A DNA stretch of 64,000 nucleotides, taken from positions 8,282 to 72,281 of the forward strand of contig CAYSZX010000002.1 in NCBI GenBank assembly GCA_964435835.1, written 5' to 3'. Position numbers and translations under genes: made by a program. Each line of letters starts with the position of its first letter. The stretch's first letter is position 1. The notes beneath the pieces are model-generated. The model was not told the origin of the DNA and did no database searches. It saw only the letters and a list, made by a program, of their open reading frames with translations. Positions 1,916 through 57,579 of this stretch are shown here, piece after piece. The DNA is from an uncultured Candidatus Saccharibacteria bacterium. Its GTDB lineage: Bacteria; Patescibacteriota; Minisyncoccia; Minisyncoccales; JANBVM01.

Positions 1916-1923
1916 TAATAATG

Positions 1924-1994
1924 CTGCGGGGCCAGGATTCGAACCTGAATTAGAGAAGTCAAAGTTCTCCGTCCGACCATTAGACGACCCCGCA
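1924..1994 (-). tRNA. tRNA-Gln (anticodon UUG)
   Basis: Manual cloverleaf of 71 nt: acceptor UGCGGGG/CCCCGCA with U1:A72, D-loop AAUGGUC, anticodon loop CUUUGAC, T-arm UCAGG-UUCGAAU-CCUGG. No CCA is encoded. Confidence 0.85.
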
Positions 1995-2660
1995 TTGTTT
2001 ACAAATACCCTCTATCCAACCAGCAACTTTTCTGTTGAGCTGGGTACTTCTTCTAACTCGAATATTGATTAATCCATAATATTTTTTCTTTTTTCTTCTA
2101 CTTTTAATCTTATTATGTTTAAAATATACATTAATTTTGTTTTTTTGAACAGACAAAATATTAGCCCAATATCTTTTAGCTCTTTGCCAGTTTCCACTTT
2201 CATGAATGTAAAGACTATAAACTAATCTTGATTTAGGAATTGAACAAACCTCTTTAAGCCACTTAGTATAAAGGAGTATCATTCTTGAGTCAGAGTTACT
2301 AAAAGACAAACTTGCTCCAGTTCTGTATTTTTTCTGCTTCTTCCCTTCAGCCCAATAAAGAGCGGCGCCAATTAATTTAAGTTTTTCTTTTGATATTTTT
2401 TCAATTTCTTTTCTTGCTTTTCTCTTTATCTTTTTAGTTCTTTTAATTCTTTGTTCTCTTCTTTTCCTAGCTCCTTTTAAAGCAGCTTTCCTTTTCTTTT
2501 CAGTTAGTCTTTGCTTTTGCCTTTTTGTTAAACCAACACTTCTTAGCCATAAAGATAAAGTTGATTTTGCAACAGGAACTTTTTCTAGTATTTCTCTATA
2601 AGAAAGACCCTTCCTTCTCAATCTTATTGCTTTTCTTTTTTCTTTCTTTTTTGGGATCAT
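1980..2660 (-). CDS. HTH protein with a LAGLIDADG-like (homing-endonuclease-like) C-terminal domain
   Basis: The N-terminus has a resolvase-type HTH (GLSYREILEKVPVAKSTLSLWLR), followed by a K/R-rich linker. The C-terminus has LIGAALYWAEGKK...SFSNSD...YGLINIRV, which resembles single-motif LAGLIDADG folds. The last 15 nt, including the stop, lie inside tRNA-Gln. Confidence 0.4.
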   Translation of the reverse strand: MIPKKKEKRKAIRLRRKGLSYREILEKVPVAKSTLSLWLRSVGLTKRQKQRLTEKKRKAALKGARKRREQRIKRTKKIKRKARKEIEKISKEKLKLIGAALYWAEGKKQKKYRTGASLSFSNSDSRMILLYTKWLKEVCSIPKSRLVYSLYIHESGNWQRAKRYWANILSVQKNKINVYFKHNKIKSRRKKKKYYGLINIRVRRSTQLNRKVAGWIEGICKQCGVV

Positions 2661-2719
2661 TTGAACTACGATTTATATTTTTTTTATTATACCACCGTAG
2701 TTCTATTTTAGGAATAGAT

Positions 2720-3829
2720 TTATTCTATCCCGCAAATTTCAACAACTCCTAACTCCAAAGGTAATTGAGGAATTGGTGAATATTTCATCTTGTTTTGAGC
2801 CTCAAGGAAGATATCAATAATTTCCTTCAACTCTTCCTTTTTAAAGTTTTTTGCTTGTTTTTGCAAGTTTTTAATTTCTTCTTTAGTTAAATTAACTAAA
2901 TAATCTTTTGATGACTCCTCCCCTATTATCTTAGTAATTAAAACTTTTCTTAAATAATTAATTAAGCTTTTAGTAAATTCTTCCAAATCTAATCCTTTAT
3001 TATTTATTTCATTTAAATAATGAATTGCTTCTGATATTTTTTTGTCTTCAAGTAAATCAACAAATTTACTAACTATATCTATTTCAATTAAACCTAATAA
3101 GCTTTTAATATCTTTAATATTAATTTCTTTTTTGGAATCTTTGTAAAAAGTAGCTAATTGATTCAATAATCCCTCAGCATCTCTAATTGCTCCTTCAGAA
3201 TTAGCAGCAATTAATTCTAAACCCTCATCACTAATTTTGATATCTTCCTCTTTAATTATTCTTTTTAATTTTTCAACAATTTGAGGAACAGTTAATCTTT
3301 TAAAATCAAATCTTTGGCATCTTGAAACTATAGTTGGAATCATTTTATGGACTTCAGTAGTAGCTAGGATGAAAATAGCATGTTCAGGAGGTTCTTCTAA
3401 AGTTTTTAAAAGAGCATTAGCTCCATCTTTAGTGAGCTGATGGCACTCATCAATAATAAATATTTTATACTTTGATTTAGTTGGAGAAAATTTAACTCCT
3501 TCTTTCAACTCTCTGATATCATCAATTCCTCGGTGAGAAGCAGCATCCATTTCAACTAAATCAATAGCCTGTCCTTCCGTTATTTCTTTACAAGACGAGC
3601 ATTTATTACAAGGTTCGAATTCTCCCTCTTCCCTATTCTCACAATTAACAGCTTTGGCTAATAATCTAGCTAAAGTAGTTTTTCCTGTTCCTCTTGGACC
3701 AGAAAACAAATAAGCATGAGAAACCATATCTCTTGCTATAGCATTAGTTAAGGTCTTAACAATATGTTTTTGTCCAATAAATTCTTTAAATTTTTGAGGT
3801 CTATATTTTCTATATAATACTAAAGACAT
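2720..3829 (-). CDS. dnaX: DNA polymerase III gamma/tau subunit (short form, 369 aa)
   Basis: YRPQKF..GQ, Walker A GPRGTGKTT, a Cys cluster CNKCSSC, and DEAH-like IIDECHQL. Confidence 0.9.
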   Translation of the reverse strand: MSLVLYRKYRPQKFKEFIGQKHIVKTLTNAIARDMVSHAYLFSGPRGTGKTTLARLLAKAVNCENREEGEFEPCNKCSSCKEITEGQAIDLVEMDAASHRGIDDIRELKEGVKFSPTKSKYKIFIIDECHQLTKDGANALLKTLEEPPEHAIFILATTEVHKMIPTIVSRCQRFDFKRLTVPQIVEKLKRIIKEEDIKISDEGLELIAANSEGAIRDAEGLLNQLATFYKDSKKEINIKDIKSLLGLIEIDIVSKFVDLLEDKKISEAIHYLNEINNKGLDLEEFTKSLINYLRKVLITKIIGEESSKDYLVNLTKEEIKNLQKQAKNFKKEELKEIIDIFLEAQNKMKYSPIPQLPLELGVVEICGIE

Positions 3830-4443
3830 TATTTTTTAAATACTATAAATTTATAACTTAAGAAATTCCAAACAGATCCAACTATAGCAGCAAGAATTGC
3901 TCCAACATTAGCCCATATTGTTTCATTTAGTCCAAATTGAGGACCTAAAGTATTAACTACAAAAGAAGCAGTTCCAACATTAATAAAGAATCCAACAACA
4001 GTTATTGAGAAAAATTGAGTAAATTCCTTTTTTATTTCTGATTTATCTTCTTTTTCAAAAGCTAAGAATTTGTTTCCCCAATATTTAGCAATGGTAGCTA
4101 TTATAAAAGAGGTTCCTTTAAATAAATTATAAGTCCATCCCGTCGCTTTACCAAAAAACCAAAACAAGATATTCATAATACCTAAATCAAATAAGGTAGT
4201 TAAAACTCCAATTAAAAGAAATTTTCCTGCTTGAAAAACAATTAAGAATTTTTTTCCAATCAGATAACAGATATAAAGACCTAGTAAAGATATAATCGGA
4301 AGAAAAACTATCATTAAATATTGTAAGGTGGTCGCCTTGATACCCCAAATAAACTCCACTTGGGAGCTTTCAATAAAACCATAAAGTAAACCTGCTACCC
4401 CTTCTCCGGCTAGCAGAGCGAGAGCAATGTTTTTTATTTTCAT
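3829..4443 (-). CDS. GtrA-family membrane protein
   Basis: 204 aa with 4-5 TM segments and the C-terminal WNFLSYKFIVFKK signature of GtrA-like proteins. Confidence 0.65.
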   Translation of the reverse strand: MKIKNIALALLAGEGVAGLLYGFIESSQVEFIWGIKATTLQYLMIVFLPIISLLGLYICYLIGKKFLIVFQAGKFLLIGVLTTLFDLGIMNILFWFFGKATGWTYNLFKGTSFIIATIAKYWGNKFLAFEKEDKSEIKKEFTQFFSITVVGFFINVGTASFVVNTLGPQFGLNETIWANVGAILAAIVGSVWNFLSYKFIVFKK

Positions 4444-4530
4444 ATTGTTTATCTTATCATTATTTTTTAAAAAATAAAATTAACATAAAAGATCTTTTTT
4501 TTTACTCCTAAATGTGGCAAGATAAATAAT

Positions 4531-5934
4531 ATGTTAAAGTTCTACAACACCCTTACTAAGAAAAAAGAAGAATTCAAGCCCTCAAAAGATAAAGAGGTTG
4601 ATCTTTATACTTGTGGTCCAACTGTTTATTGGTTTGCTCATGTTGGAAACCTAAGAACTTATATTTTTGAAGATTTATTAAAAAGGACTTTAAAATATAA
4701 TGACTATAAAGTAAATCATGTTATGAATATTACTGATGTTGGTCATTTAACTTCAGATTCTGATGGAGGAGAAGATAAAATGGTTAAAGCTTTAAAAAGA
4801 GAAGGTAAAGAATTAAACGAAGAATCTATTTTAGAAATTGCTGATTATTATACTAAAGCTTTTAAAAAGGATTTGGGTTTATTAAATATTCAATACCCCG
4901 ATGTTTTTTGCAAGGCTACAGAAACTATTCCGGAGCAAATAGAGCTAGTAAAAAAGATAATTGAAAATGGCTATGCTTATGAAACAGATCAAGCTGTTTA
5001 TTTCGATACTCATAAATTAGAAAGCTATACAGAGTTAGCCAATCAAGACCTAAAAGGTCTTCAAGAAGGAGTAAGTATTGAAAAGAAAAAAGACAAAAAG
5101 AATCCTACTGATTTTGCCTTATGGATTAAACTAAAGGGCGAACATAAAAATCATATTATGAATTGGGATTCTCCTTGGGGAAAAGGATTTCCTGGTTGGC
5201 ATGTTGAATGTTCAGCTATGAGTATTAAATATTTAGGGGAAGAAATAGACATTCATTGTGGGGGCATTGATCACATTCCAGTTCATCATACCAATGAAAG
5301 GGCTCAAAATATTGCCGCTCTTGGAAAACCAGTAGTTAGATTTTGGATGCATGGAGAATTTCTGATTTCAAAAGAAGAAAAAATGTCAAAGTCAAAAGGT
5401 AACATCATGACTATAGCAGAACTAACAGAAAAAGGAATTGATCCTCTTGCCTACCGCTATTTATGTCTTAATGCCCATTATCGTTCTAAATTATCTTTTT
5501 CTTTAGAATCTTTAAAAAATGCAGAACATTCTTTAGAAAATTTAAAAGAAGAAACAAGAAAATTAAAAAAGGAGAAAGACAATTCTCAAAAAACAAGTTC
5601 TGGAGAATATTTAAAAAAGTTTAAATCTTTTGTTAATGACGATTTAGATATTCCAAAGGCTTTAGCTTTGGCCTGGAAAACGATTAAGGATGATGAAATT
5701 AGCAGCAATGAAAAGTATAATCTTTTAATTGAATTCGATAAGGTTTTTGGTTTAGGGTTAAAAGATATTAAAGAGATAAAAATTCCTGAGGAAGTTAGAA
5801 AGCTAGTTCAAAAAAGAGAAAAATATAGAAAAGAAAAAGAATGGAAAGAAGCTGATAAGGTAAGAAAAAAAATAAATAAATTGGGCTTTAAAGTTGAAGA
5901 CACCCAAAAAGGTTCTCTTATCAAAAAGAAATAA
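4531..5934 (+). CDS. cysS: cysteine--tRNA ligase
   Basis: Class I motifs HVGNLRTY and KMSKSKGN, plus the CysRS core GWHVECSAM. Confidence 0.95.
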
Positions 5935-5956
5935 TTCTAAATCTTTAGTTTTTAAG

Positions 5957-5986
5957 AAAAAAGCAGTATTATTAATGCTGCTTTTT
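5957..5986 (+). terminator. intrinsic terminator after cysS
   Basis: AGCAGU...GCUGCU stem (5962-5982) followed by UUUU. Confidence 0.55.
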
Positions 5987-6001
5987 AAAATAAAGTATTT
6001 C

Positions 6002-6030
6002 TTGCCAATGATTTTTTGCTATGTTAAATT
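6002..6030 (+). promoter_or_regulatory. candidate sigma70-type promoter of dnaB; -10 ends 6 nt before the ATG
   Basis: TTGCCA (6002-6007), 17-nt spacer, TAAATT (6025-6030), then 6 nt to ATG 6037. Confidence 0.35.
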
Positions 6031-6036
6031 TAAACT

Positions 6037-7389
6037 ATGAGTAAAGATTCAAACAAGGTTCCGCCTCAATCTACAGAAGCTGAAAAAGGAATTTTAGGTT
6101 CTTTAATGCTTGATAAATCTGCTGTTACTAAAGTAGCGGATTTTTTAAGTGCAAAAGATTTTTATAGAAAAAAACATCAAGATATTTATCAAGCTTGTAT
6201 AGATCTTTTTGAACAAAATGAACCAATAGATGTTTTATCAGTTTCCAATAGATTAGAAGAGAAAAAACAACTTAAAGATATTGGAGGAAGTAGCTATTTA
6301 ACAGATTTGATTAATTTTGTTCCTACTCCTAGCCATGCTTTAAGTTATGGTAAAAAAGTTTACCATAAAAGGGTTTTAAGAGACTTAATTAGTGCTTCTC
6401 ATGAAATAGCTTCATTGGGTTATAATGAAAAAGAAGGCTTACAAAACCTTTTAGATGAAGCTGAAAGAAGAATTTTTAGTATTGCCCAGAGAAATTTAAC
6501 TAGAAGTTTTACTTCAGTTAAAGATAAATTGGAAGATGCTTTTGATAGATTAGATGAATTATCTAAACAAGATTCAGGATTAAGAGGGGTAAGCACTGGT
6601 TTTCATGATTTAGATAATCTTTTAGCTGGTCTACAAAAATCAGATTTAATAATTCTAGCCGGTAGACCGTCAATGGGTAAAAGTGCACTTGGTCTTGATT
6701 TTGCTCTTAATGCAGCAATTAGAGATGGAACTCCAGTTGGTCTTTTTTCAATGGAGATGTCGAAGGATCAGATTATCGATAGATTTATTGCTAATATTTC
6801 AGGAGTTGATTTATGGAGATTAAGAACAGGAAAATTATCTAATCAAGGAGTCGATAATGATTTTACTAAAATTCAACAGGCCTTAGGAGCATTATCCAAA
6901 GTCCCTATTTATATTGACGATACTTTTTCTACTACTGTTTTACAAATGAAGTCAATGGCTCGTAGATTGCAAGCAGAAAAAGGATTAGGGCTTGTGGTGG
7001 TAGATTATCTTCAGCTAATGGAGCCTTTAGACTCACAAGCTAATCCTGTTCAGCAAGTTTCTGAAAACTCAAGAGCTTTAAAGGGTTTAGCCAGAGAATT
7101 AGAAGTTCCGGTTGTTGTTTTATCTCAGTTATCAAGAGCAGTAGAAAAAAGATCACCTAAGATTCCACGGTTGTCTGACTTAAGACAAAGCGGAAGTATT
7201 GAGCAAGATGCCGATGTTGTTTTGTTTGTTTATCGTGAAGAAGTTTACAGAGATAAAACAAAAAGAAAGAATATAGCAGATATTATTATTGGCAAGCATC
7301 GTAATGGTCCAATTGGTAAAGTAGAGCTTTTCTTTGATAAAAAGAGAGTTAGCTTTAAGAATATTAGTAAAGAAGCTAAAGAGGCTTAA
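6037..7389 (+). CDS. dnaB: replicative DNA helicase
   Basis: N-terminal PPQSTEAEKGILGS, Walker A GRPSMGKSALGLD, and the RecA-like core with DYLQLM. Confidence 0.95.
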   Translation: MSKDSNKVPPQSTEAEKGILGSLMLDKSAVTKVADFLSAKDFYRKKHQDIYQACIDLFEQNEPIDVLSVSNRLEEKKQLKDIGGSSYLTDLINFVPTPSHALSYGKKVYHKRVLRDLISASHEIASLGYNEKEGLQNLLDEAERRIFSIAQRNLTRSFTSVKDKLEDAFDRLDELSKQDSGLRGVSTGFHDLDNLLAGLQKSDLIILAGRPSMGKSALGLDFALNAAIRDGTPVGLFSMEMSKDQIIDRFIANISGVDLWRLRTGKLSNQGVDNDFTKIQQALGALSKVPIYIDDTFSTTVLQMKSMARRLQAEKGLGLVVVDYLQLMEPLDSQANPVQQVSENSRALKGLARELEVPVVVLSQLSRAVEKRSPKIPRLSDLRQSGSIEQDADVVLFVYREEVYRDKTKRKNIADIIIGKHRNGPIGKVELFFDKKRVSFKNISKEAKEA

Positions 7390-14153: not shown

Positions 14154-14200
14154 TTATTTATTTTAACAGAAAAAACTTTTTAAGAAAGCTTTTAATAATG

Positions 14201-14272
14201 TGACCCCACCGAGAGTCGAACTCGGGTTACAAGATTGAGAATCTTGCGTCCTAACCACTAGACGATGGGGCC
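14201..14272 (-). tRNA. tRNA-Glu (anticodon CUC)
   Basis: Manual cloverleaf of 72 nt: acceptor GGCCCCA/UGGGGUC, D-loop AGUGGUUA, anticodon loop UUCUCAA, T-arm CCGAG-UUCGACU-CUCGG. Confidence 0.85.
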
Positions 14273-31717: not shown

Positions 31718-31757
31718 ATTGTTTATTTTATCCTTTTTATCTTTTACTTTCAAATAG

Positions 31758-31829
31758 TGGGCATGACTGGATTTGAACCAATGACCTTTGCAATGTGAAT
31801 GCAATGCTCTACCCCTGAGCTACATACCC
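31758..31829 (-). tRNA. tRNA-Val (anticodon CAC)
   Basis: Manual cloverleaf of 72 nt: acceptor GGGUAUG/CAUGCCC, D-loop AGGGGUA, anticodon loop UUCACAU, T-arm AUUGG-UUCAAAU-CCAGU, discriminator A. Confidence 0.85.
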
Positions 31830-33926: not shown

Positions 33927-34439
33927 TTATTTTAGTTCTACTTTAGCACCTGCTTCTTCAAATTTCTTTTTAATTTCCTCTGCTTTTTCTTTATCAACAC
34001 CTTCTTGGATTGTTTGAGGCTCATTAGCAATAGCATCAGCTAAATCTTTAGAATCTTTAAGCCCTTTCTTAGTAATATCTCTTATTGCTTTAATAACTTT
34101 AATTTTCTTTCCTCCCAATTCAGTAATAACAATATTGTAAGATTCTTTTTCCTCTTCTCCCTTTTCTCCATTTCCTCCTCCGGCTGTTGCGGCTCCAGCA
34201 ACTACTTGAGGTGCAGCTGAAACCCCAAATTTATCTTCTAATATTTTTACTAATTCTGCTAAATCTAAAACGCTCATTTCTTCAATTTCTTTGACAAGCT
34301 TTTTAAATTTTGCAGGAACTTCTACTTCTTTTTCTTCATCTTCTTTCTTTTCTTCATCTTTGTCTTTTTTGTTTTCTTCTTTCTCTTCCTTTTTCTCTTC
34401 TTCTTTTTTGTTTTCTTCTTTTTTTTCTTCTTTTGCCAT
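33927..34439 (-). CDS. rplL: 50S ribosomal protein L7/L12 with a ~43-aa K/E-rich N-terminal extension
   Basis: The canonical part runs from ...KFKKLVKEIEEMSVLDLAELVKILEDKFGVSAAP to ...EEAGAKVELK. There is no in-frame alternative start between ATG 34439 and the canonical N-terminus. Confidence 0.9.
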   Translation of the reverse strand: MAKEEKKEENKKEEEKKEEKEENKKDKDEEKKEDEEKEVEVPAKFKKLVKEIEEMSVLDLAELVKILEDKFGVSAAPQVVAGAATAGGGNGEKGEEEKESYNIVITELGGKKIKVIKAIRDITKKGLKDSKDLADAIANEPQTIQEGVDKEKAEEIKKKFEEAGAKVELK

Positions 34440-34452
34440 ATTATTTTATTAA

Positions 34453-34971
34453 TTATTTATTATTTTTAATTGCATCTAATGCAAAAACCAGACCTTTTAA
34501 ATTATATTGCAAACTTCTAACAAAACCTTTAACTGGTGAAGAAATGCTTCCCACAAGTCTTCCTAGAAGCTCTTCCTTTGAAGGAAGTTGTGCCAATTCA
34601 ATAAATTTTTCTCTATCTTGAAATTCATTTTCGAAGAATCCACCTAATATCTTTAAATTCTCATTTTCTTTAGTGAAATTATAAATTACTTTAGCAGGAG
34701 CAATTTCATCTTTATAGCCAAAAACTAGAGCTATTTCTCCTTTCATTTCTTCTATATTTTTTTCTAGATTGTTCTTATCTAGAGCTATCTGAATTAATGT
34801 TTTCTTAGCTACTTTCATTTCTCCGTCAACCTCTTCAAGCTTTCTTCTTAAATCAAGCCCTTCTTGAACCTTTAAACCAGAAAAATCAACAAAAAGCATT
34901 GTTGTTTGTTCTTTTATTTTCTCGTTTAATTTTTTAACCGCCTTCTTCTTTTGTTCTTTTGTTTTTGCCAT
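34453..34971 (-). CDS. rplJ: 50S ribosomal protein L10
   Basis: 172 aa with an L10 pattern (LFVDFSGLKV......LR, LLGRLVGSISSP), lying upstream of rplL. Confidence 0.9.
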   Translation of the reverse strand: MAKTKEQKKKAVKKLNEKIKEQTTMLFVDFSGLKVQEGLDLRRKLEEVDGEMKVAKKTLIQIALDKNNLEKNIEEMKGEIALVFGYKDEIAPAKVIYNFTKENENLKILGGFFENEFQDREKFIELAQLPSKEELLGRLVGSISSPVKGFVRSLQYNLKGLVFALDAIKNNK

Positions 34972-34975
34972 ATTT

Positions 34976-35067
34976 AAATAAAAAATTGTGGTTTTTTAAC
35001 CACAGACAAATAAAAAAATTACTATTTTCCCCTCGGTAGGTCTTATGTAACTGCCTACTGTCTGTGG
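34976..35067 (-). promoter_or_regulatory. candidate L10-leader RNA with mutually exclusive helices
   Basis: In the minus-strand RNA, a 9-bp helix CCACAGACA (35067-35059) / UGUCUGUGG (35008-35000) encloses the hairpin GUAGG...CCUAC (35036-35058). It competes with UGUGGUU-AAAA-AACCACA (35004-34987), which is followed by a U-rich run ending at the rplJ ATG. Confidence 0.4.
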
Positions 35068-35141
35068 ATATATTATTATGCTATATTTTTTTTATTTCTT
35101 TGTCAATGAGAATAATAAAATTATTAATTCATTTTAGAAAT

Positions 35142-36764: not shown

Positions 36765-37076
36765 TCATTTCTCTTTTTTATAAAGAGACGATTGCTTAAT
36801 GATAATCTTATAAATATTTTCAATAAAATCTCCTCCTGCATATCCAATAATAAAAGACATGGCAGGATCAAAAGCGCCATGTAAAGTAAATCCTAAACTC
36901 TTAACAGACATACTGATTAAAAGACCAGTAATTCCGGAAATGAAAGTAGTAGCTAAAAAATAAGGAAGTTTAAAACCAACATTCTTATAGGAAAATTGAT
37001 ATTTAATATAGCCTACTAAACCTCTAACCATACCTCCTCCAAAGCCAGCAATTAAAATTGAAAACATTATATTCAT
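36765..37076 (-). CDS. small membrane protein, hypothetical
   Basis: The start is set at ATG 37076 (MNIMFSILIAGFGGG...), because the ORF-track N-terminus runs into tRNA-Trp. Confidence 0.45.
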   Translation of the reverse strand: MNIMFSILIAGFGGGMVRGLVGYIKYQFSYKNVGFKLPYFLATTFISGITGLLISMSVKSLGFTLHGAFDPAMSFIIGYAGGDFIENIYKIIIKQSSLYKKEK

Positions 37077-37081
37077 ATTCT

Positions 37082-37155
37082 TGGCAGGGGCGAAGGGATT
37101 TGCACCCCTATCATTGGTTTTGGAGACCAATATTCTGCTATTGAACTACGCCCCC
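37082..37155 (-). tRNA. tRNA-Trp (anticodon CCA), CCA end encoded; non-canonical A18/G55
   Basis: Manual cloverleaf of 74 nt: acceptor GGGGGCG/CGCCCCU, D-loop AAUAGCA, anticodon loop CUCCAAA, T-arm AGGGG-UGCAAAU-CCCUU. Confidence 0.8.
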
Positions 37156-37164
37156 ACATATTAA

Positions 37165-37326
37165 TTATTTTTTGGTTTCCTTATGTAAAGTATGTTTTTT
37201 GCACCACTTGCAAAACTTTTTAAGTTCTAACTTACCTTCAACTCCCTTTGACTTATGAATACGATAATTAATTCTATCACATTCATCACATTTCATTTTA
37301 ACATAAACCTTTTTTCTTTTGGCCAT
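37165..37326 (-). CDS. rpmG: 50S ribosomal protein L33
   Basis: Not in the ORF track (53 aa): MAKRKKVYVKMKCDECDRINYRIHKSKGVEGKLELKKFCKWCKKHTLHKETKK. It has CxxC...CxxC zinc ribbons typical of L33. Confidence 0.85.
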   Translation of the reverse strand: MAKRKKVYVKMKCDECDRINYRIHKSKGVEGKLELKKFCKWCKKHTLHKETKK

Positions 37327-37354
37327 AAATTTAAAAAAATTAAATAATAAACGG

Positions 37355-37428
37355 AGCCTGAGAGCGGAGTTGCACCGCTGGCCTCGTCTTTACCAAAGAC
37401 GTGCTCTAACTAACTGAGCTACCCAGGC
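37355..37428 (-). tRNA. tRNA-Thr (anticodon GGU); non-canonical A18/G55
   Basis: Manual cloverleaf of 74 nt: acceptor GCCUGGG/CUCAGGC, D-loop AGUUAGUUA, anticodon loop UUGGUAA, T-arm AGCGG-UGCAACU-CCGCU. Confidence 0.8.
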
Positions 37429-37437
37429 TAATTAGTG

Positions 37438-37520
37438 TGGGTGGTGAGGGATTTGCACCCCCGTAGGCGAATGCCTGCTCTTTTACAGAGAGCCCGGTTT
37501 GTCTGCTTCCGTAACCACCC
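37438..37520 (-). tRNA. tRNA-Tyr (anticodon GUA), long variable arm; non-canonical A18/G55
   Basis: Manual cloverleaf of 83 nt: acceptor GGGUGGU/ACCACCC, D-arm CGG-AAGCAGACAAA-CCG, anticodon loop CUGUAAA, variable arm AGGCAUUCGCCUAC, T-arm GGGGG-UGCAAAU-CCCUC. Confidence 0.8.
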
Positions 37521-37574: not shown

Positions 37575-38252
37575 CTACTTTTTTATTTCTTTGGCTCTCT
37601 TTTCCTTCCATTCTTTAATCTTTTTATGGTTTCCTGATAATAACACTTTTGGTACTTTCCATTCAACTCCTTTTTTACTTTTAAAAATTTCTGGCCTAGT
37701 ATATTGAGGATATTCAATAAAACCTTCCCCTTTTTTTCTTTCATCTAAAAAAGATTCTTTTCCTAAAACTTCTGGTATTAATCTAGAAATTGATTCTACT
37801 AAAACCATAGCTGGAACCTCCCCTCCCATCAAATCATATTCCCCTATTGATAATTCTAAATCAGCTACATGTTTAGCAACTCTTTCATCTACTCCTTCAT
37901 ATCTTCCGCAGATAAGAATTATTTGTTCCATTTTACTTAAAGAAGTAGCTTTGCTTTGATTGTACTTTTTACCTCGAGGAGTAAAAAGAACTATCTTTCT
38001 TTCTTTAGGTTTGATATCTTTTCTTTTAATATCTTCAACTGCTCTATAAATTGGACCAATCTTAAAAACCATTCCCAAACCTCCACCGTAAGGTTTATCA
38101 TCAACGGTTTTTCTTTTGTCTTTAGTCCACTCTCTTAAATTATGGACGTTAACTTTAATTAATTCTTCCTCCTGAGCTTTTTTAATTAAACTAGCCTCAA
38201 GATAGGAATCAAAAATCTCAGGGAAAATTGTAAGAATATCGAATTGTAACAT
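37575..38252 (-). CDS. trmD: tRNA (guanine37-N1)-methyltransferase
   Basis: FDILTIFPE, DDKPYGGGLGMV, ICGRYEGVDERV, LSIGEYDLMGGE. Confidence 0.95.
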   Translation of the reverse strand: MLQFDILTIFPEIFDSYLEASLIKKAQEEELIKVNVHNLREWTKDKRKTVDDKPYGGGLGMVFKIGPIYRAVEDIKRKDIKPKERKIVLFTPRGKKYNQSKATSLSKMEQIILICGRYEGVDERVAKHVADLELSIGEYDLMGGEVPAMVLVESISRLIPEVLGKESFLDERKKGEGFIEYPQYTRPEIFKSKKGVEWKVPKVLLSGNHKKIKEWKEKRAKEIKK

Positions 38253-48930: not shown

Positions 48931-51129
48931 ATGAAAAAGTATTTTATTCAAACTTATGGTTGCCAACAAAACGAATCTGATTCTGAACGAATAGCTTCTG
49001 TTTTAAAAAAGATGAATTACAAGTCTGCTTCATCAAAAAATGAAGCTGATTTAATTATAGTAAACGCTTGTTCTATAAGAGAATCAGCAATTGATAGAAT
49101 GAGAGGATTAGCTTCCAAATTAAAGAAATTAAAAGAAAAAAATTCAAAAATTAAGACAATTTTAACGGGTTGCTTACTTAAAAAATCAAAAAAAGAATTT
49201 AAAAATTACTTTGATTTTATTTTACCTATAAAAACTCTTCAAAATTGGTCTGAAATATTAAAAAAAGAAAAAGCCTACCCTTTCTTTAATCCAAGGGATA
49301 AGAAGTTTAATAAAGAGTTTGGTGTGGACTATTTTGATATTAAGCCCAATAGAGAAAATAAATATTCCGCTTTAATCTCTATTTCTTCTGGTTGTAATAA
49401 TTTTTGCTCTTATTGTGTAGTTCCCCGCACCCGTGGACCTTTAATCTGTAGAGAGCATGAAAAAATAATTAATGAAGCTAAAAAAGCAATTAAAAAAGGA
49501 GTCAAAGAAATATGGCTTCTTGGAGAAAATGTTAATGATTACAAATCTCCAAGCAATAAATCAATTAATTTTGCTAAATTGTTAGAAAAAATAGATACCC
49601 TTCTAGGAAATTTCTGGATTAGATTTACTAGTCCGCACCCTAAAAACTTTTCACAGGAATTAATAGATCAACTTGCTAAAACTAAAAAGTTAGCTAAATA
49701 TATTCATGTTCCTGTTCAGTCTGGCAACAATCAAATTTTAAAAAGAATGAGTAGGTCTTATACTATCCAGAACTATAAAAAAATTATTAAGGAAATAAGA
49801 GAAAAAATACCAGACGTAGCTATTTCAACCGATATTATTGTTGGTTTTCCTGGCGAAACAAAAGAACAATTCAAAGACACTTTAAAATTATTCAAAGAAT
49901 TGAAATTTGATATGGCTTATATAGCAGAATATTCTGAAAGAAACGAAACAAAAGCAGCAGAAATGGAAAATAACATTTCTTTTCAAGAGAAAAAAAGAAG
50001 AAAGAAAAAACTTACTAGAATTTTAAAAGAGACTGCTTTAGAGAACAATAAGAAATATGTTGGTAAAATAGTTAAAGTTTTAATTGATAAAGAAACTAAA
50101 GAGTTTTTATATGGAAAAACTGAAAAATACAAGACAGTTAAAATTCAAAAAGATAAAATCACTGCTTTGGGAAGTTTTGCCAAAGTAAAAATAAAGAAAG
50201 CTCTTCCTTGGGGATTAAAAGGAGAAAAGGTTCCTCCTAAATTAGTAGTTGTTTTAGGGCCCACAGCTTCTGGAAAAACTGAAACAAGTATTAAATTAGC
50301 TCAAAAATTTAACGGAGAAATTGTTTCAGCTGATTCTAAACAGGTTTATAAGGAAGTATCTATTGGAACAGCTAAACCAACCGAAAAAGAAAGAAAAGCT
50401 GTTAAACATCATTTAATTGACTTTATTTCTCTGGAGAAAGACTTTAATGTGGCTAAGTATAAAAAACTTGCCCTAAAGGCTATTAAGAAGGTCTTAAAGA
50501 AAGAAAAACAGCCCTTTTTAGTCGGAGGTTCTGCTCTTTACATTAAATCAGTAGTCAAAAATTTTTCTTTAACCGAAACTCCACCCAACAAGAAGCTGCG
50601 AAAGAAACTTAGTAATAAAAGTGTAAAAGAGCTTTTTGAAATTTACAAGAAATTAGATCCAAAAGGAGCTAAAAAAATAGCAAAAGAAAATAAAAGAAGA
50701 TTAATAAGAGCTATAGAGGTTTGCGAGGAAAGCGGTAAATCTTTTTGGCAACAAAGAAAAAAGAAAAATCCTTTATTTGATGTTTTTAAAATTGGTATTA
50801 AACCTAATAAGAAAAAACTAAAAGAAAGAATAACCAAAAGGACAGAAAAAATGTTTAAACAAGGATTAGAAAAAGAAGCCATTAAAATAATTAAAAAAAT
50901 GGGTCCGTGCCCTTCTCTCAAAATAATTGGATATCAAGAATGGTTCCCTTTTTATCCTGATTTTTCTATTACTGAAAAAGACAGAGAAAAAGTAAAAGAA
51001 AAAATCATCCTTCATACTTTACAATTTAGTAAAGATCAGATGACTTGGTACAAAAAAGATAAGGAAATTAACTGGGTGCAAAATTACAAAGAAGCAAAAG
51101 AATTAATCCAAAAATTTTTAAGAAATTAA
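48931..51129 (+). CDS. miaB-miaA: fusion protein: MiaB (tRNA-i6A37 methylthiotransferase) N-terminal ~430 aa plus MiaA (tRNA dimethylallyltransferase) C-terminal ~300 aa
   Basis: MiaB part: YGCQQNESDSE (UPF0004), radical SAM CNNFCSYC, and a TRAM domain (VGKIVKVLID...). MiaA part: VVLGPTASGKT, SADSKQVYKEVSIGTAKP, HHLIDF. It is a single uninterrupted 732-codon ORF. Confidence 0.85.
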   Translation: MKKYFIQTYGCQQNESDSERIASVLKKMNYKSASSKNEADLIIVNACSIRESAIDRMRGLASKLKKLKEKNSKIKTILTGCLLKKSKKEFKNYFDFILPIKTLQNWSEILKKEKAYPFFNPRDKKFNKEFGVDYFDIKPNRENKYSALISISSGCNNFCSYCVVPRTRGPLICREHEKIINEAKKAIKKGVKEIWLLGENVNDYKSPSNKSINFAKLLEKIDTLLGNFWIRFTSPHPKNFSQELIDQLAKTKKLAKYIHVPVQSGNNQILKRMSRSYTIQNYKKIIKEIREKIPDVAISTDIIVGFPGETKEQFKDTLKLFKELKFDMAYIAEYSERNETKAAEMENNISFQEKKRRKKKLTRILKETALENNKKYVGKIVKVLIDKETKEFLYGKTEKYKTVKIQKDKITALGSFAKVKIKKALPWGLKGEKVPPKLVVVLGPTASGKTETSIKLAQKFNGEIVSADSKQVYKEVSIGTAKPTEKERKAVKHHLIDFISLEKDFNVAKYKKLALKAIKKVLKKEKQPFLVGGSALYIKSVVKNFSLTETPPNKKLRKKLSNKSVKELFEIYKKLDPKGAKKIAKENKRRLIRAIEVCEESGKSFWQQRKKKNPLFDVFKIGIKPNKKKLKERITKRTEKMFKQGLEKEAIKIIKKMGPCPSLKIIGYQEWFPFYPDFSITEKDREKVKEKIILHTLQFSKDQMTWYKKDKEINWVQNYKEAKELIQKFLRN

Positions 51130-53954: not shown

Positions 53955-55184
53955 TTATATCTTGAATGTTTTATAGTTCTCTTCCAAAACATCCAAGCAC
54001 TTCTTTAAATTTGAAGGTTTCCGCCCTCCCCATTTTGTAAAGGCAGGACAAACCGCCTCTTTTGTTTTAAATGTTTCGGGCTCCCTGCATTTCCCTTCTC
54101 TCCAGCAATTTGGACCAATGTCTTTTTTTAAAGCTGGATAATTTTCGGCCAACTTTCTAGTTAAAGGAACTCCTAGCGAACTCCTTATCTCCCATTGAGC
54201 AACTCCTTCGGATCTTGCTCTTGAAGTTTTTATTATTCCAAACCCTTTCGCATAAATCTTCGCTTTTGCCTGTTGTCCTAATAATAGAGAATAAGCAAAA
54301 CTTGCTTTCTTGTCTTTAATCAACTCTAATTGTTTCTTCTGAGCTTTTTTTGCTAACTCTCTGTATATCTCTTCTCCTTTTTTAGGAAAAGTTGGCGGAA
54401 CAACAAAAGTCCCTCTTCTAGCAATACCTTCTAGTGATTCAATATTACACAGAAATTGTCTCTGTCGCACCAGTTGAGCATACATGGATAAGCTTCCTAC
54501 AATACCCATATTTAAAGACAAAGAATGGATATCGTCAGACTGATAGTCAAGCATCGTTTCTTCAGAAATCTCCTCTTTTCCCCAAAAATTCCATTGTGAA
54601 GATTCTTTTTCTTTGGGTATCTCCAAAAAATAATCCTTTACTTCTTCTTTTATCCTCTTCCCTATTTCTTTTAATTCGCTTAGAGGCGTATTCTCTAAGG
54701 AATTCGCTATTTTCACTAAATAACGAGGAGGAGTAAAAAATATCATTCTTGTCAGTGTAGCTTCCGGAAGAACATATCGAGCATCTTGAATGGGAATACC
54801 TAAATCAAGTAATTTTTCATACCCTTTAAATAATTCACCGCCAAAATCACCAAGTTCTTCTCTGTAATTATTCGCTTTAATTAATCTTAGAGAGGCTTCA
54901 ATTCCAGCCCCAAAAATCAAATTAGGAGCGTTTACATTTCGCCAGAAATAAATAGCTGCTAATCTAGAAATATCCTCTAGAGATACGGCAAAGCCTCCGA
55001 AATCAGCTGGAATCATATGTCCATATCCTAAGACTGCTTTTACAAGCCTTTTAGACTTTTCAGGATTATCTTTGCATTCTTTTAGAATTTGGGATATGCT
55101 CCCTTTCTCTATTGGAGTCCGAGAAATTTTAGCCGCGGTTGCAGCTAAAAAAACAGGGTTTTCTTTTAACAAAGATACTTTCAT
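53955..55184 (-). CDS. ThyX-like (Thy1-fold) protein, internally duplicated and divergent
   Basis: Half 1: AAKISRT, GYGHMIPADF, ISRLAAIYFWRNVNAP, DARYVLPEATLTR. Half 2: SLSMYAQLVRQRQFLCNIES, LLLGQQAK, SEGVAQWEIRS. A Cys-rich tail follows. Neither half has an intact RHRxxS motif. Confidence 0.5.
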   Translation of the reverse strand: MKVSLLKENPVFLAATAAKISRTPIEKGSISQILKECKDNPEKSKRLVKAVLGYGHMIPADFGGFAVSLEDISRLAAIYFWRNVNAPNLIFGAGIEASLRLIKANNYREELGDFGGELFKGYEKLLDLGIPIQDARYVLPEATLTRMIFFTPPRYLVKIANSLENTPLSELKEIGKRIKEEVKDYFLEIPKEKESSQWNFWGKEEISEETMLDYQSDDIHSLSLNMGIVGSLSMYAQLVRQRQFLCNIESLEGIARRGTFVVPPTFPKKGEEIYRELAKKAQKKQLELIKDKKASFAYSLLLGQQAKAKIYAKGFGIIKTSRARSEGVAQWEIRSSLGVPLTRKLAENYPALKKDIGPNCWREGKCREPETFKTKEAVCPAFTKWGGRKPSNLKKCLDVLEENYKTFKI

Positions 55185-56600: not shown

Positions 56601-57023
56601 TTATTTCTTAACCTCTACCCCCATATTTTTAGCAGTGGCAGCAATAATTTTCTTAGCTTTTTCTAAATCACGAGTATTTAAATCTGACATTTTCTTCTTA
56701 GCTATTTCTTCCAGTTGTTGATCAGTTATTTTTCCTACTTTTTCTTTATTAGGCTCTCCAGAACCTTTTTCAATACCAGCTGCTTTTTTAATTAAATCAG
56801 TACTTAAAGGTTCTTTTATCTTTAAATCATAACTTCTATCTTCATAAATAGTAACAACAGTAGGAATAACGCCTTCTTTATCTTTAGTTGCTTGATTAAA
56901 TTTTTGACAAATTTCAGACATATTTACTCCATGAGGAGCTAAAGCAGGACCAACTGGAGGAGCTGGATTAGCTTTTCCGGCCGGAATTTGTAATTTTACA
57001 ATAGATTTTACTTTTTTAGGCAT
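56601..57023 (-). CDS. rplK: 50S ribosomal protein L11
   Basis: [24 protein letters not shown]; 140 aa. Confidence 0.95.
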
Positions 57024-57033
57024 AATTTTTAAA

Positions 57034-57579
57034 TTAAAGTTTTTGAATTTGAAGAGAATCTAATTCAACAGGAGTATCTCTTCCAAACATATTAACTAAC
57101 ACTTTTATTTTTTCTCTTTCCTCATCAATTTCTGAAACTTTTCCTTCGAAACCTTTAAAAGGACCATCCGTAATTTTAACTAGTTCGCCTGGCTTAACCA
57201 AAATCTTAGGTTTAGGCTCTTCTATTTTCATTCTTTCTTGTAAATTTTCAATTTCTTCTTTTGAAACAGGAACAGGTGTAGTTCCCGACCCAACAAAACC
57301 AGTAACGTTTGGTGTATTTCTTACAACATACCAGGAATCATCAGTTACAATCATTTCCACTAAAACATAACCAGGATAGATTTTTTCTTCAATAGTTTTT
57401 CTCTTTCCGTTTTTTATCTTAATCTTTTTTTCTTTAGGAACAATAACATTAAATATTTTGTCCTCCATATCTAAAGACTTGATTCTTTGCCTTAAATTCT
57501 TAGCAACAGAATCCTCATATCCTGAATATGTATGTAAAACATACCAATTTCTCTCTTGATTTACTTTTTGTTTAGACAT
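57034..57579 (-). CDS. nusG: transcription termination/antitermination factor NusG
   Basis: [14 protein letters not shown] domain plus the KOW motif ([13 protein letters not shown]). Confidence 0.9.

Follow-up and report, generated by a model that had tools for sequence, protein, structure and literature searches.

The tRNA residues G18, G19, Psi55 and C56, which join the D-loop to the T-loop at the elbow, are taught as invariant. The window analyzed here, a stretch of 64,000 nucleotides from contig CAYSZX010000002.1 (assembly GCA_964435835.1; G+C ~29%), carries a cluster of tRNA-Tyr, tRNA-Thr and tRNA-Trp genes, each of which has A at position 18 and G at position 55. ARAGORN finds six tRNA genes in the 64-kb window, all on the minus strand, and three of them make up this cluster at 37082-37520. 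The genes and their elbow residues are as follows.

37082-37155, minus strand: tRNA-Trp(CCA), called by ARAGORN, RF00005 score 63.6 bits, discriminator G73, CCA encoded, A18/G55
37353-37428, minus strand: tRNA-Thr(GGU), called by ARAGORN, RF00005 score 61.3 bits, A18/G55
37437-37520, minus strand: tRNA-Tyr(GUA), called by ARAGORN, RF00005 score 45.7 bits, long variable arm, A73, no encoded CCA, A18/G55
37138-37139, minus strand: A18 (37139) and G19 (37138) of tRNA-Trp, placed by covariance-model alignment
37410-37411, minus strand: A18 (37411) and G19 (37410) of tRNA-Thr, placed by covariance-model alignment
37503-37504, minus strand: A18 (37504) and G19 (37503) of tRNA-Tyr, set by comparison with a canonical orthologue
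37098-37104, minus strand: T-loop UGCAAAU of tRNA-Trp, G55 at 37103, from the RF00005 alignment and ARAGORN
37368-37374, minus strand: T-loop UGCAACU of tRNA-Thr, G55 at 37373, from the RF00005 alignment and ARAGORN
37451-37457, minus strand: T-loop U54-G55-C56-A57-A58-A59-U60 of tRNA-Tyr, G55 at 37456, from the RF00005 alignment and ARAGORN

A sequence-only reading of the window had assigned A18 and G55 to these three tRNAs and a canonical elbow to the other three (Gln, Glu and Val). Both assignments are confirmed by ARAGORN and RF00005, with the loops as first noted. The RF00005 gathering score is 29 bits, and the matches of the Trp, Thr and Tyr tRNAs span model positions 1-71. When RF00005 was run at its gathering threshold over the whole window, tRNA-Trp was the sole listed one of the three; tRNA-Thr and tRNA-Tyr were reported when a 600-base region was searched separately. 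The D-loops read AAUAGCA in Trp, AGUUAGUUA in Thr and AAGCAGACAAA in Tyr, and GG is missing from all of them. In Trp and Thr, the G18-G19 columns of the model hold A-G. In Tyr, the model places an insertion otherwise, with low posterior and with G-A under GG. Since the Tyr orthologue reads GAGUGGCCAAA in the canonical locus L007 and GAGUAGUCAAA in L008, the A of the Tyr D-loop replaces the first G of GG. The canonical G18 and U55 are thereby absent from all three tRNAs (A18, G55), while the rest of their architecture is preserved: U54, C56, A58, G19, the G53-C61 pair and all four stems are intact, and G19-C56, U54-A58 and G53-C61 are present in all three as well as in 28/28 G55 tRNAs of relatives. 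The anticodon loops, CUGUAAA (Tyr), UUGGUAA (Thr) and CUCCAAA (Trp), retain U33 and a purine at position 37.

For comparison, 80 loci around TrmD were taken from species-representative genomes, and 11 more came from closer metagenomic relatives through exact-protein look-up. The cluster order in the window is trmD, Tyr, Thr, rpmG, Trp. The same order is found in L081-L086, L089 and L091 (six distinct genomes, TrmD 71-91% identical), where Tyr, Thr(GGU) and Trp alike have A18-G19 together with U54-G55-C56. Around these fixed residues, the neighboring bases of the D-loop and position 59 of the T-loop vary. When 14 Trp genes were aligned (that of the window and 13 orthologues), two-sided changes that keep pairing were seen in 16 of the 21 stem pairs, which is the signature expected of functional tRNAs under purifying selection. 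More distant relatives have canonical tRNAs at the same site: Tyr, Thr and Trp are all canonical in L007 and L087/88, and the orthologues are partly canonical in L001, L003, L006, L008, L010 and L044. Beyond the window clade, A18/G55 occurs in Tyr of L002-L006, L008, L010, L012, L015 and L044 and in Thr(GGU) of L001, L004, L005 and L012; in Trp it is restricted to the window clade. A neighbor-joining tree of TrmD, a rough guide only as it rests on a single short protein, recovers the window clade as monophyletic, with U55, C55 and G55 alternating in Thr(GGU). Residue 18 matches throughout this tree: it is A wherever position 55 is G, and G wherever position 55 is U or C. Close relatives do not share one set of switched isoacceptors, and therefore the choice of Tyr, Thr and Trp in the window clade looks like historical contingency. 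No canonical copy of tRNA-Tyr, tRNA-Thr(GGU) or tRNA-Trp was found in the 64-kb window, nor, in any of the relatives, at a distance of up to 10 kb from the cluster.

The coupling between residues 18 and 55 was assessed by contingency tables; A-G is not a standard pair for structure-pair counting. Among 1,592 distinct tRNAs pooled from four samples, A18-G19 is present in 120/125 tRNAs with G55C56 and in 12/1,467 others (120/5/12/1455; Fisher p = 3e-159, uncorrected for relatedness). In the sample of viral contigs, collected with a D-arm pattern that required A at the G18 position and left the T-loop free, 717 distinct tRNAs were obtained: 47 combine a D-loop lacking GG with G55-C56, 6 combine such a D-loop with U55-C56, and 635 have GG with U55-C56. 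The G55 tRNAs of the viral contigs belong to 16 amino-acid families and exceed the Rfam threshold. A less biased viral scan, with N at position 18, gave G55 in 3/537 tRNAs (~0.6%). Metagenome contigs searched with the same D-arm pattern yielded 45 G55C56 tRNAs, 43 of which have A-G at 18-19 by a stricter rule, and a Met(CAU) gene recurs among them. One contig carrying an A18/G55 Met(CAU), L340, encodes a LigA whose named relatives are from Paceibacterota, Parcubacteria, Taylorbacteria and Minisyncoccia; the Met(CAU) orthologues in three relatives (L453-L455) are canonical, and the Met(CAU) of L340 is thus another independent switch. The switch has arisen repeatedly, in Tyr, Thr, Trp and Met(CAU) of Patescibacteria and in at least 16 amino-acid families of the viral contigs.

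Position 57, which lies beside the intercalated residue 18, is a third co-varying position (A57-A58 of the window Trp tRNA are 37100-37101). Of the tRNAs with G55, 27/28 bacterial and 35/49 viral ones have A57, compared with 23/65 and 178/655, respectively, of those with U55. This shift fits a predicted stacking of residue 18 on residue 57. C56 is invariant in the G55 tRNAs (28/28 bacterial, 49/49 viral). Position 59 varies freely in the 28 G55 tRNAs of relatives (A in 15, G in 8, C in 4 and U in 1). Named cultured phages gave no further example: ARAGORN called only canonical tRNAs in Enterococcus phage EF24C, Gordonia phages Boopy and Yvonnetastic, Streptomyces phage Shady and Serratia phage 92A1, which were found by BLAST of the window tRNAs and the viral G55 tRNAs against GenBank phages.

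Two other departures at the elbow were seen in the same material. The first is a T-loop with U54-C55-C56, always together with G18-G19 and mostly with G57 (5/6 bacterial, 10/11 viral). In these lineages, position 55 is accordingly open to U, C and G, and residue 18 depends on it by a rule; the Thr genes of L044 and L006 differ by only 6 bases, U55C and A57G among them. The U54-C55-C56 tRNAs are listed here.

L002:11118-11190, L006:1867-1939, L015:3738-3810 and L047:12530-12602: tRNA-Thr(GGU)
L012:6081-6153: tRNA-Ile(GAU)
L068:20247-20321: tRNA-Arg(UCG)
Viral contigs: ~10 further tRNAs

The second is a viral covariation in which a D-loop of the form ...UGAU... (G18-A19) accompanies the T-loop UUUAAUU or UUUGAUU (U55-U56), i.e., G19-C56 is swapped for A19-U56; examples are L092:1063-1136, L117, L127 and L175. 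The contig L092 (IMGVR_UViG_3300032046_000144, 30.6 kb, classed as viral) also has A18/G55 in 9 of its 20 ARAGORN tRNAs, with more tRNAs called by Rfam. Within this tRNA array, at L092:2590-2867 on the minus strand, lies a bacterial class A RNase P RNA of only ~278 nt (RF00010, 143 bits); either this RNA is virus-borne or the contig is a mis-classed cellular fragment.

We consider it highly probable that the window Tyr, Thr(GGU) and Trp tRNAs are ordinary working tRNAs, in which the G18-Psi55 contact would be replaced by a compensated A18-G55 contact. The sequence-only reading had argued for a selected covariation and against decay, and three lines of evidence uphold this: A18 and G55 strictly occur together in each of four independent samples, the state has been conserved in a clade in which compensatory changes have made the stems diverge, and other relatives carry canonical orthologues at this syntenic site. 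Covariation, conservation and orthology are direct observations. Functional equivalence of the A18/G55 state is suggested by its evolution, and the three tRNAs are predicted to be expressed and aminoacylated. The state is heritable, kept by selection and recurrently arising, and it is frequent in the sampled Parcubacteria/Paceibacteria-type loci. Some points weigh against this interpretation. Yeast SUP4oc tolerates no single mutation at G18 or U55, and the double mutant G18A+U55G is not mentioned in the SUP4oc text searched (PMC4117946). Furthermore, RNAfold favors a register-shifted T hairpin with a GCAA tetraloop in Trp and Tyr, and extra canonical copies beyond the 64-kb window are formally possible.

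In a canonical tRNA, G18 sits between residues 57 and 58 and bonds Psi55, and the pairing of G19 with C56 creates the flat outer face that the ribosome, RNase P and T-boxes use (PMC4810234). Because residue 18 depends strictly on residue 55, position 57 shifts with them, and G19-C56, U54-A58 and G53-C61 are retained, the elbow itself appears to be preserved. Under the proposed mechanism, the U54-A58 reverse-Hoogsteen pair, the Watson-Crick G19-C56 pair with its flat outer face and the closing pair G53-C61 would all remain, and the T-loop reads U-G-C-A-A, the U-G-N-R-A form that rRNA, RNase P and T-box RNAs commonly have. In the U-turn, G55 would serve in place of U55, and A18 would still stack in the gap between 57 and 58. 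In the hydrogen-bond geometry we infer, the carbonyl of residue 55 would accept its bond from the A18 amino group in place of the donor on G18, with A57 preferred as the stacking neighbor. One consequence claimed by the sequence-only reading follows from chemistry: U is the precursor of pseudouridine and G that of Gm, so neither Psi55 nor Gm18 is possible in the three tRNAs, which can be no substrate of TruB or TrmH. Psi55 has been called the most universally conserved tRNA modification (PMC7912444). The sequence-only reading also raised an altered recognition of the three tRNAs by RNase P, the L1 stalk, L5, T-box RNAs or nucleases, a suggestion that is speculative.

The variant does not constitute a new kind of system, because the objects are ordinary tRNA genes; the variation, in a very well studied system, lies at positions held invariant. 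With canonical bacterial elongator tRNAs (G18-Psi55, G19-C56, T54-A58) the window tRNAs share the cloverleaf, the 7-nt T-loop, U54, C56, A58, G53-C61 and G19; they also pass RF00005 and lie in the usual trmD/rpmG neighborhood. They differ by A18 and G55, which preclude Psi55 and Gm18, and by a strong preference for A57. A parallel to their T-loop comes from outside tRNA. The U-turn signature of T-loops is (g/u)NR (PMC2175325), and the T-loops of T-boxes and other non-tRNA RNAs read UGxRA (PMC7583486), G at the second position being the norm there (PMC2175325; PMC7583486). The UGCAA of all three window tRNAs satisfies the sequence signature U-(G/U)-N-R-A of the generalized T-loop found in rRNA, RNase P RNA and T-box Stem I (PMC2175325; PMC7583486). 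In such loops, a purine from elsewhere fills the gap between positions 4 and 5 (PMC4810234), a role that A18 would take in the window tRNAs. However, generalized T-loops belong to large RNAs, and here the G-type loop belongs to a cellular tRNA, a setting for which the U-type had been held invariant.

As to the claim that the pattern was undescribed, full-text searches (subscription-only literature being outside their scope) found no A18/G55 in cellular or phage tRNAs. The claim holds to that extent and has to be qualified by the G at T-loop position 2 outside tRNA and by the valine-accepting tRNA-like structure (TLS) of tymoviruses (RF00233; turnip yellow mosaic virus, TYMV). The Rfam consensus of the latter has a CAGU D-loop and the T-arm GGGGUGCAACUCCC, i.e., the same A/G combination. 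The D/T-loop association of this TLS has been reported to be nearly identical to that of tRNA (PMC4810234), and its D-loop A38 touches the T-loop (PMC6265322). The tymovirus TLS appears to be a solved precedent for an A/G elbow. Unlike the window tRNAs, it is a pseudoknotted 3′-UTR element of plant RNA viruses and no tRNA. The window tRNAs score 18.3, 13.5 and 12.4 bits against RF00233, whose gathering score is 40; they are thus no members of that family, and the likeness goes no further than the D-loop A-G and the T-arm. Lineage- and isoacceptor-specific co-varying swaps of ‘invariant’ tertiary pairs in functional cytosolic tRNAs have a precedent in eukaryotic tRNA-Ala, with R15/A48 and A54/A58 (PMC7566577). 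That case differs in its positions (15/48 and 54/58), in its domain of life and in concerning one isoacceptor family. Elbow-less or reduced mitochondrial tRNAs likewise depart from G18/G19/U55/C56. However, these lose the D/T-loop interaction or whole arms, whereas the window tRNAs keep G19-C56, and their residues 18 and 55 covary strictly.

How the variant came to spread is a separate matter. As the default, we suppose that, with the constraint on position 55 relaxed, a rare double change was fixed neutrally in the lineage. A bolder proposal, conceivable and in our judgment unlikely, is that A18-G55 is a second general solution of the elbow, whose spread would be tied to lost or relaxed readers of position 55 or of the elbow (TruB/Psi55, perhaps L1) or to escape from a T-loop nuclease. 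Another explanation is that A18/G55 was selected as an escape or a mark, for changing how an elbow- or T-loop-reading factor sees these tRNAs; candidate factors would be a T-loop-cleaving toxin, a nuclease of phage or host, TruB or TrmA in a chaperone role, RNase P and the L1 stalk. It addresses why the variant exists and not what it is, and is therefore compatible with working tRNAs having a compensated elbow. The enrichment of the variant in viral contigs and in episymbiotic Patescibacteria, where conflict over tRNA is plausible, would agree with it. So would the switching of only a subset of isoacceptors per genome, the viral contig that has G55 in 9/20 tRNAs and its own RNase P RNA, and the presence in the window of L11 with no L1 at either usual place. 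However, no nuclease, toxin or modified reader was identified in this analysis; the known elbow readers stack on G19-C56, which is unchanged here (PMC4810234); the differing switched sets of close relatives resemble drift more than a targeted response; and the named cultured phages checked were all canonical. On balance, we regard escape or marking as improbable.

The fold preferred by RNAfold raises a structural alternative, namely that G55-C56-A57-A58 forms a GCAA tetraloop of the GNRA type, closed by U54-N59 on a register-shifted stem, with no canonical elbow at all. Such a T-arm is part of the minimum-free-energy fold of both Trp and Tyr (that of Tyr is otherwise the cloverleaf), and the strong preference for A57 with G55 is also what a GNRA loop would show. 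Nevertheless, Thr cannot form it, having C59, and position 59 may be A, G, C or U in the G55 relatives, with no U54-N59 pair maintained. The invariance of C56 and the retention of G19 are not needed by the ‘N’ of GNRA, and the strict dependence on D-loop residue 18 makes sense only if the loops touch. Given the variable position 59 and the conserved C56 and G19, a GNRA-capped T hairpin was rejected, and we hold it to be very unlikely. The shifted hairpin as drawn by RNAfold (Trp 37098-37109, Tyr 37451-37462) has six pairs, closure by U54-A59 and the GCAA tetraloop; it may compete with the T-loop during folding, an alternative not open to canonical UUCRA loops.

Gene conversion between the T-arms of Tyr and Trp within the cluster is a possible but unsupported contributor; the T-loops of these two tRNAs differ at position 59 in several genomes, and the change in the D-loop would have required an event of its own. 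It is exceedingly unlikely that the three genes are pseudogenes, decaying or redundant copies whose elbow mutations are tolerated thanks to canonical copies elsewhere, for which only the formally possible copies outside the window could be adduced. They lie at a single conserved syntenic site where relatives have canonical genes, their stems are intact with compensatory evolution, and their Rfam scores are high. The same two-site state recurs in six genomes differing at 9-29% of TrmD residues, and random decay would not strike 18 and 55 together 120 times. The broken stems, lost synteny and lack of conservation that mark tRNA pseudogenes are not seen, and this explanation is contradicted. Lastly, an alignment artefact, in which misnumbered loops hide real G18/U55 equivalents, has in its favor the ambiguous, low-posterior Rfam alignment of the Tyr D-loop and has a negligible chance of being true, as there is no GG in the three D-loops, the 7-nt T-loops bounded by G53-C61 read U-G-C-A-A, orthologue pairs differ at exactly these columns, and neither the covariance-model alignments (Trp and Thr) nor the orthologue comparison (Tyr) yields a G18/U55 equivalent, by which the artefact is refuted.

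The remaining features of the window that bear on these tRNAs are the internal controls, the genes adjoining the cluster, and nusG with a set of ribosomal-protein genes and the L10 leader.

1923-1994, minus strand: tRNA-Gln(UUG), canonical GG and UUC, internal control
14200-14272, minus strand: tRNA-Glu(CUC), canonical GG and UUC, internal control
31757-31829, minus strand: tRNA-Val(CAC), canonical GG and UUC, internal control
37165-37326, minus strand: rpmG (ribosomal protein L33), Pfam PF00471, E = 7.9e-17, between tRNA-Thr and tRNA-Trp
37575-38252, minus strand: trmD (tRNA m1G37 methyltransferase), Pfam PF01746, E = 1.7e-50, directly upstream of tRNA-Tyr
33927-34439: rplL
34453-34971: rplJ
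34971-35085: L10 leader
56601-57023: rplK
57034-57579: nusG

On the 3′ side of the cluster follow, in order, a small open reading frame (ORF), YceG/MltG, a DJ-1 family protein, the L10 leader, L10 and L7/L12. The genes of the usual nusG-rplK-rplA-rplJ-rplL block are split up: a dCMP deaminase gene comes after that for L11, and those for L10/L12 are found 22 kb off, behind the DJ-1 gene. The window has no detectable L1 gene, be it at the two usual places (after L11 and before L10) or elsewhere. Some Parcubacteria have been reported to lack L1. The L1 stalk touches the tRNA elbow, and a tie between the absence of L1 from the window and A18/G55 is possible. A tblastn search with an approximate E. 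coli TruB query found no match in the window or in the loci of close relatives, and matches only in the distant Patescibacteria loci L030 and L045; it covered the loci only and has no bearing on the clade. Apart from the L10 leader, the sole one above threshold, no T-box or other tRNA-sensing leader (e.g., for thrS) was found in the window.

The host is an organism that maintains its tRNAs. Position-37 modification enzymes encoded in the window are TrmD and a MiaB-MiaA fusion, and an RlmN-like radical SAM enzyme is encoded there too. The fusion is a single ORF of 732 aa (48931-51129, plus strand) that joins a MiaB-type methylthiotransferase (UPF0004, radical SAM and TRAM) to MiaA (IPP transferase). 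MiaB and MiaA make ms2i6A37, which is expected on the window Tyr and Trp tRNAs, both having A36-A37-A38. TrmD homologues with a named organism come from the Patescibacteria group or from a plain “bacterium”, and the nearest species representatives by TrmD are Parcubacteria, Staskawiczbacteria or Paceibacterota (64-66% identity). The host is a tiny, groundwater-type bacterium with the genome of a Parcubacteria/Paceibacteria-like member of the Patescibacteria. A mechanically listed ORF of 121 aa (36765-37130, minus strand) overlaps tRNA-Trp and lies where secE would usually come next; its equivalent in relatives is a gene call of 100-102 aa with no Pfam match. Another ORF, of 409 aa (53955-55184, minus strand), has only a partial ThyX (Thy1) match, in two stretches (69 bits); it adjoins the genes for thymidylate kinase and dCMP deaminase and looks like an unusually long or divergent ThyX. 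In the relative L089, DnaE (Pol III alpha; 2323-6804, minus strand) is 1,493 aa long and contains an intein with a LAGLIDADG endonuclease, whereas the DnaE of the window has 1,054 aa.

With the Tyr, Thr and Trp tRNAs of the window and its relatives, a whole bacterial clade has housekeeping tRNAs lacking U55, for which the matching change at residue 18 would compensate. The rule that A18 goes with G55, usually with A57 as well, holds in more than 100 tRNAs from bacteria and uncultivated viral contigs. This amounts to a natural compensatory-mutation experiment on a tertiary contact at which laboratory mutagenesis found single changes intolerable, and it offers a direct test of how much TruB/Psi55 and the other elbow readers matter. 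It also calls for caution in tRNA annotation and in quality filters that penalize a missing GG or TPsiC, and it may provide a design rule for engineered tRNAs. If A18-G55 is indeed a second general solution of the elbow, the rule for positions 18, 55 and 57 could be used for orthogonal or modification-evading tRNAs, and these bacteria would be the first cellular organisms known with housekeeping tRNAs that lack Psi55 by design.

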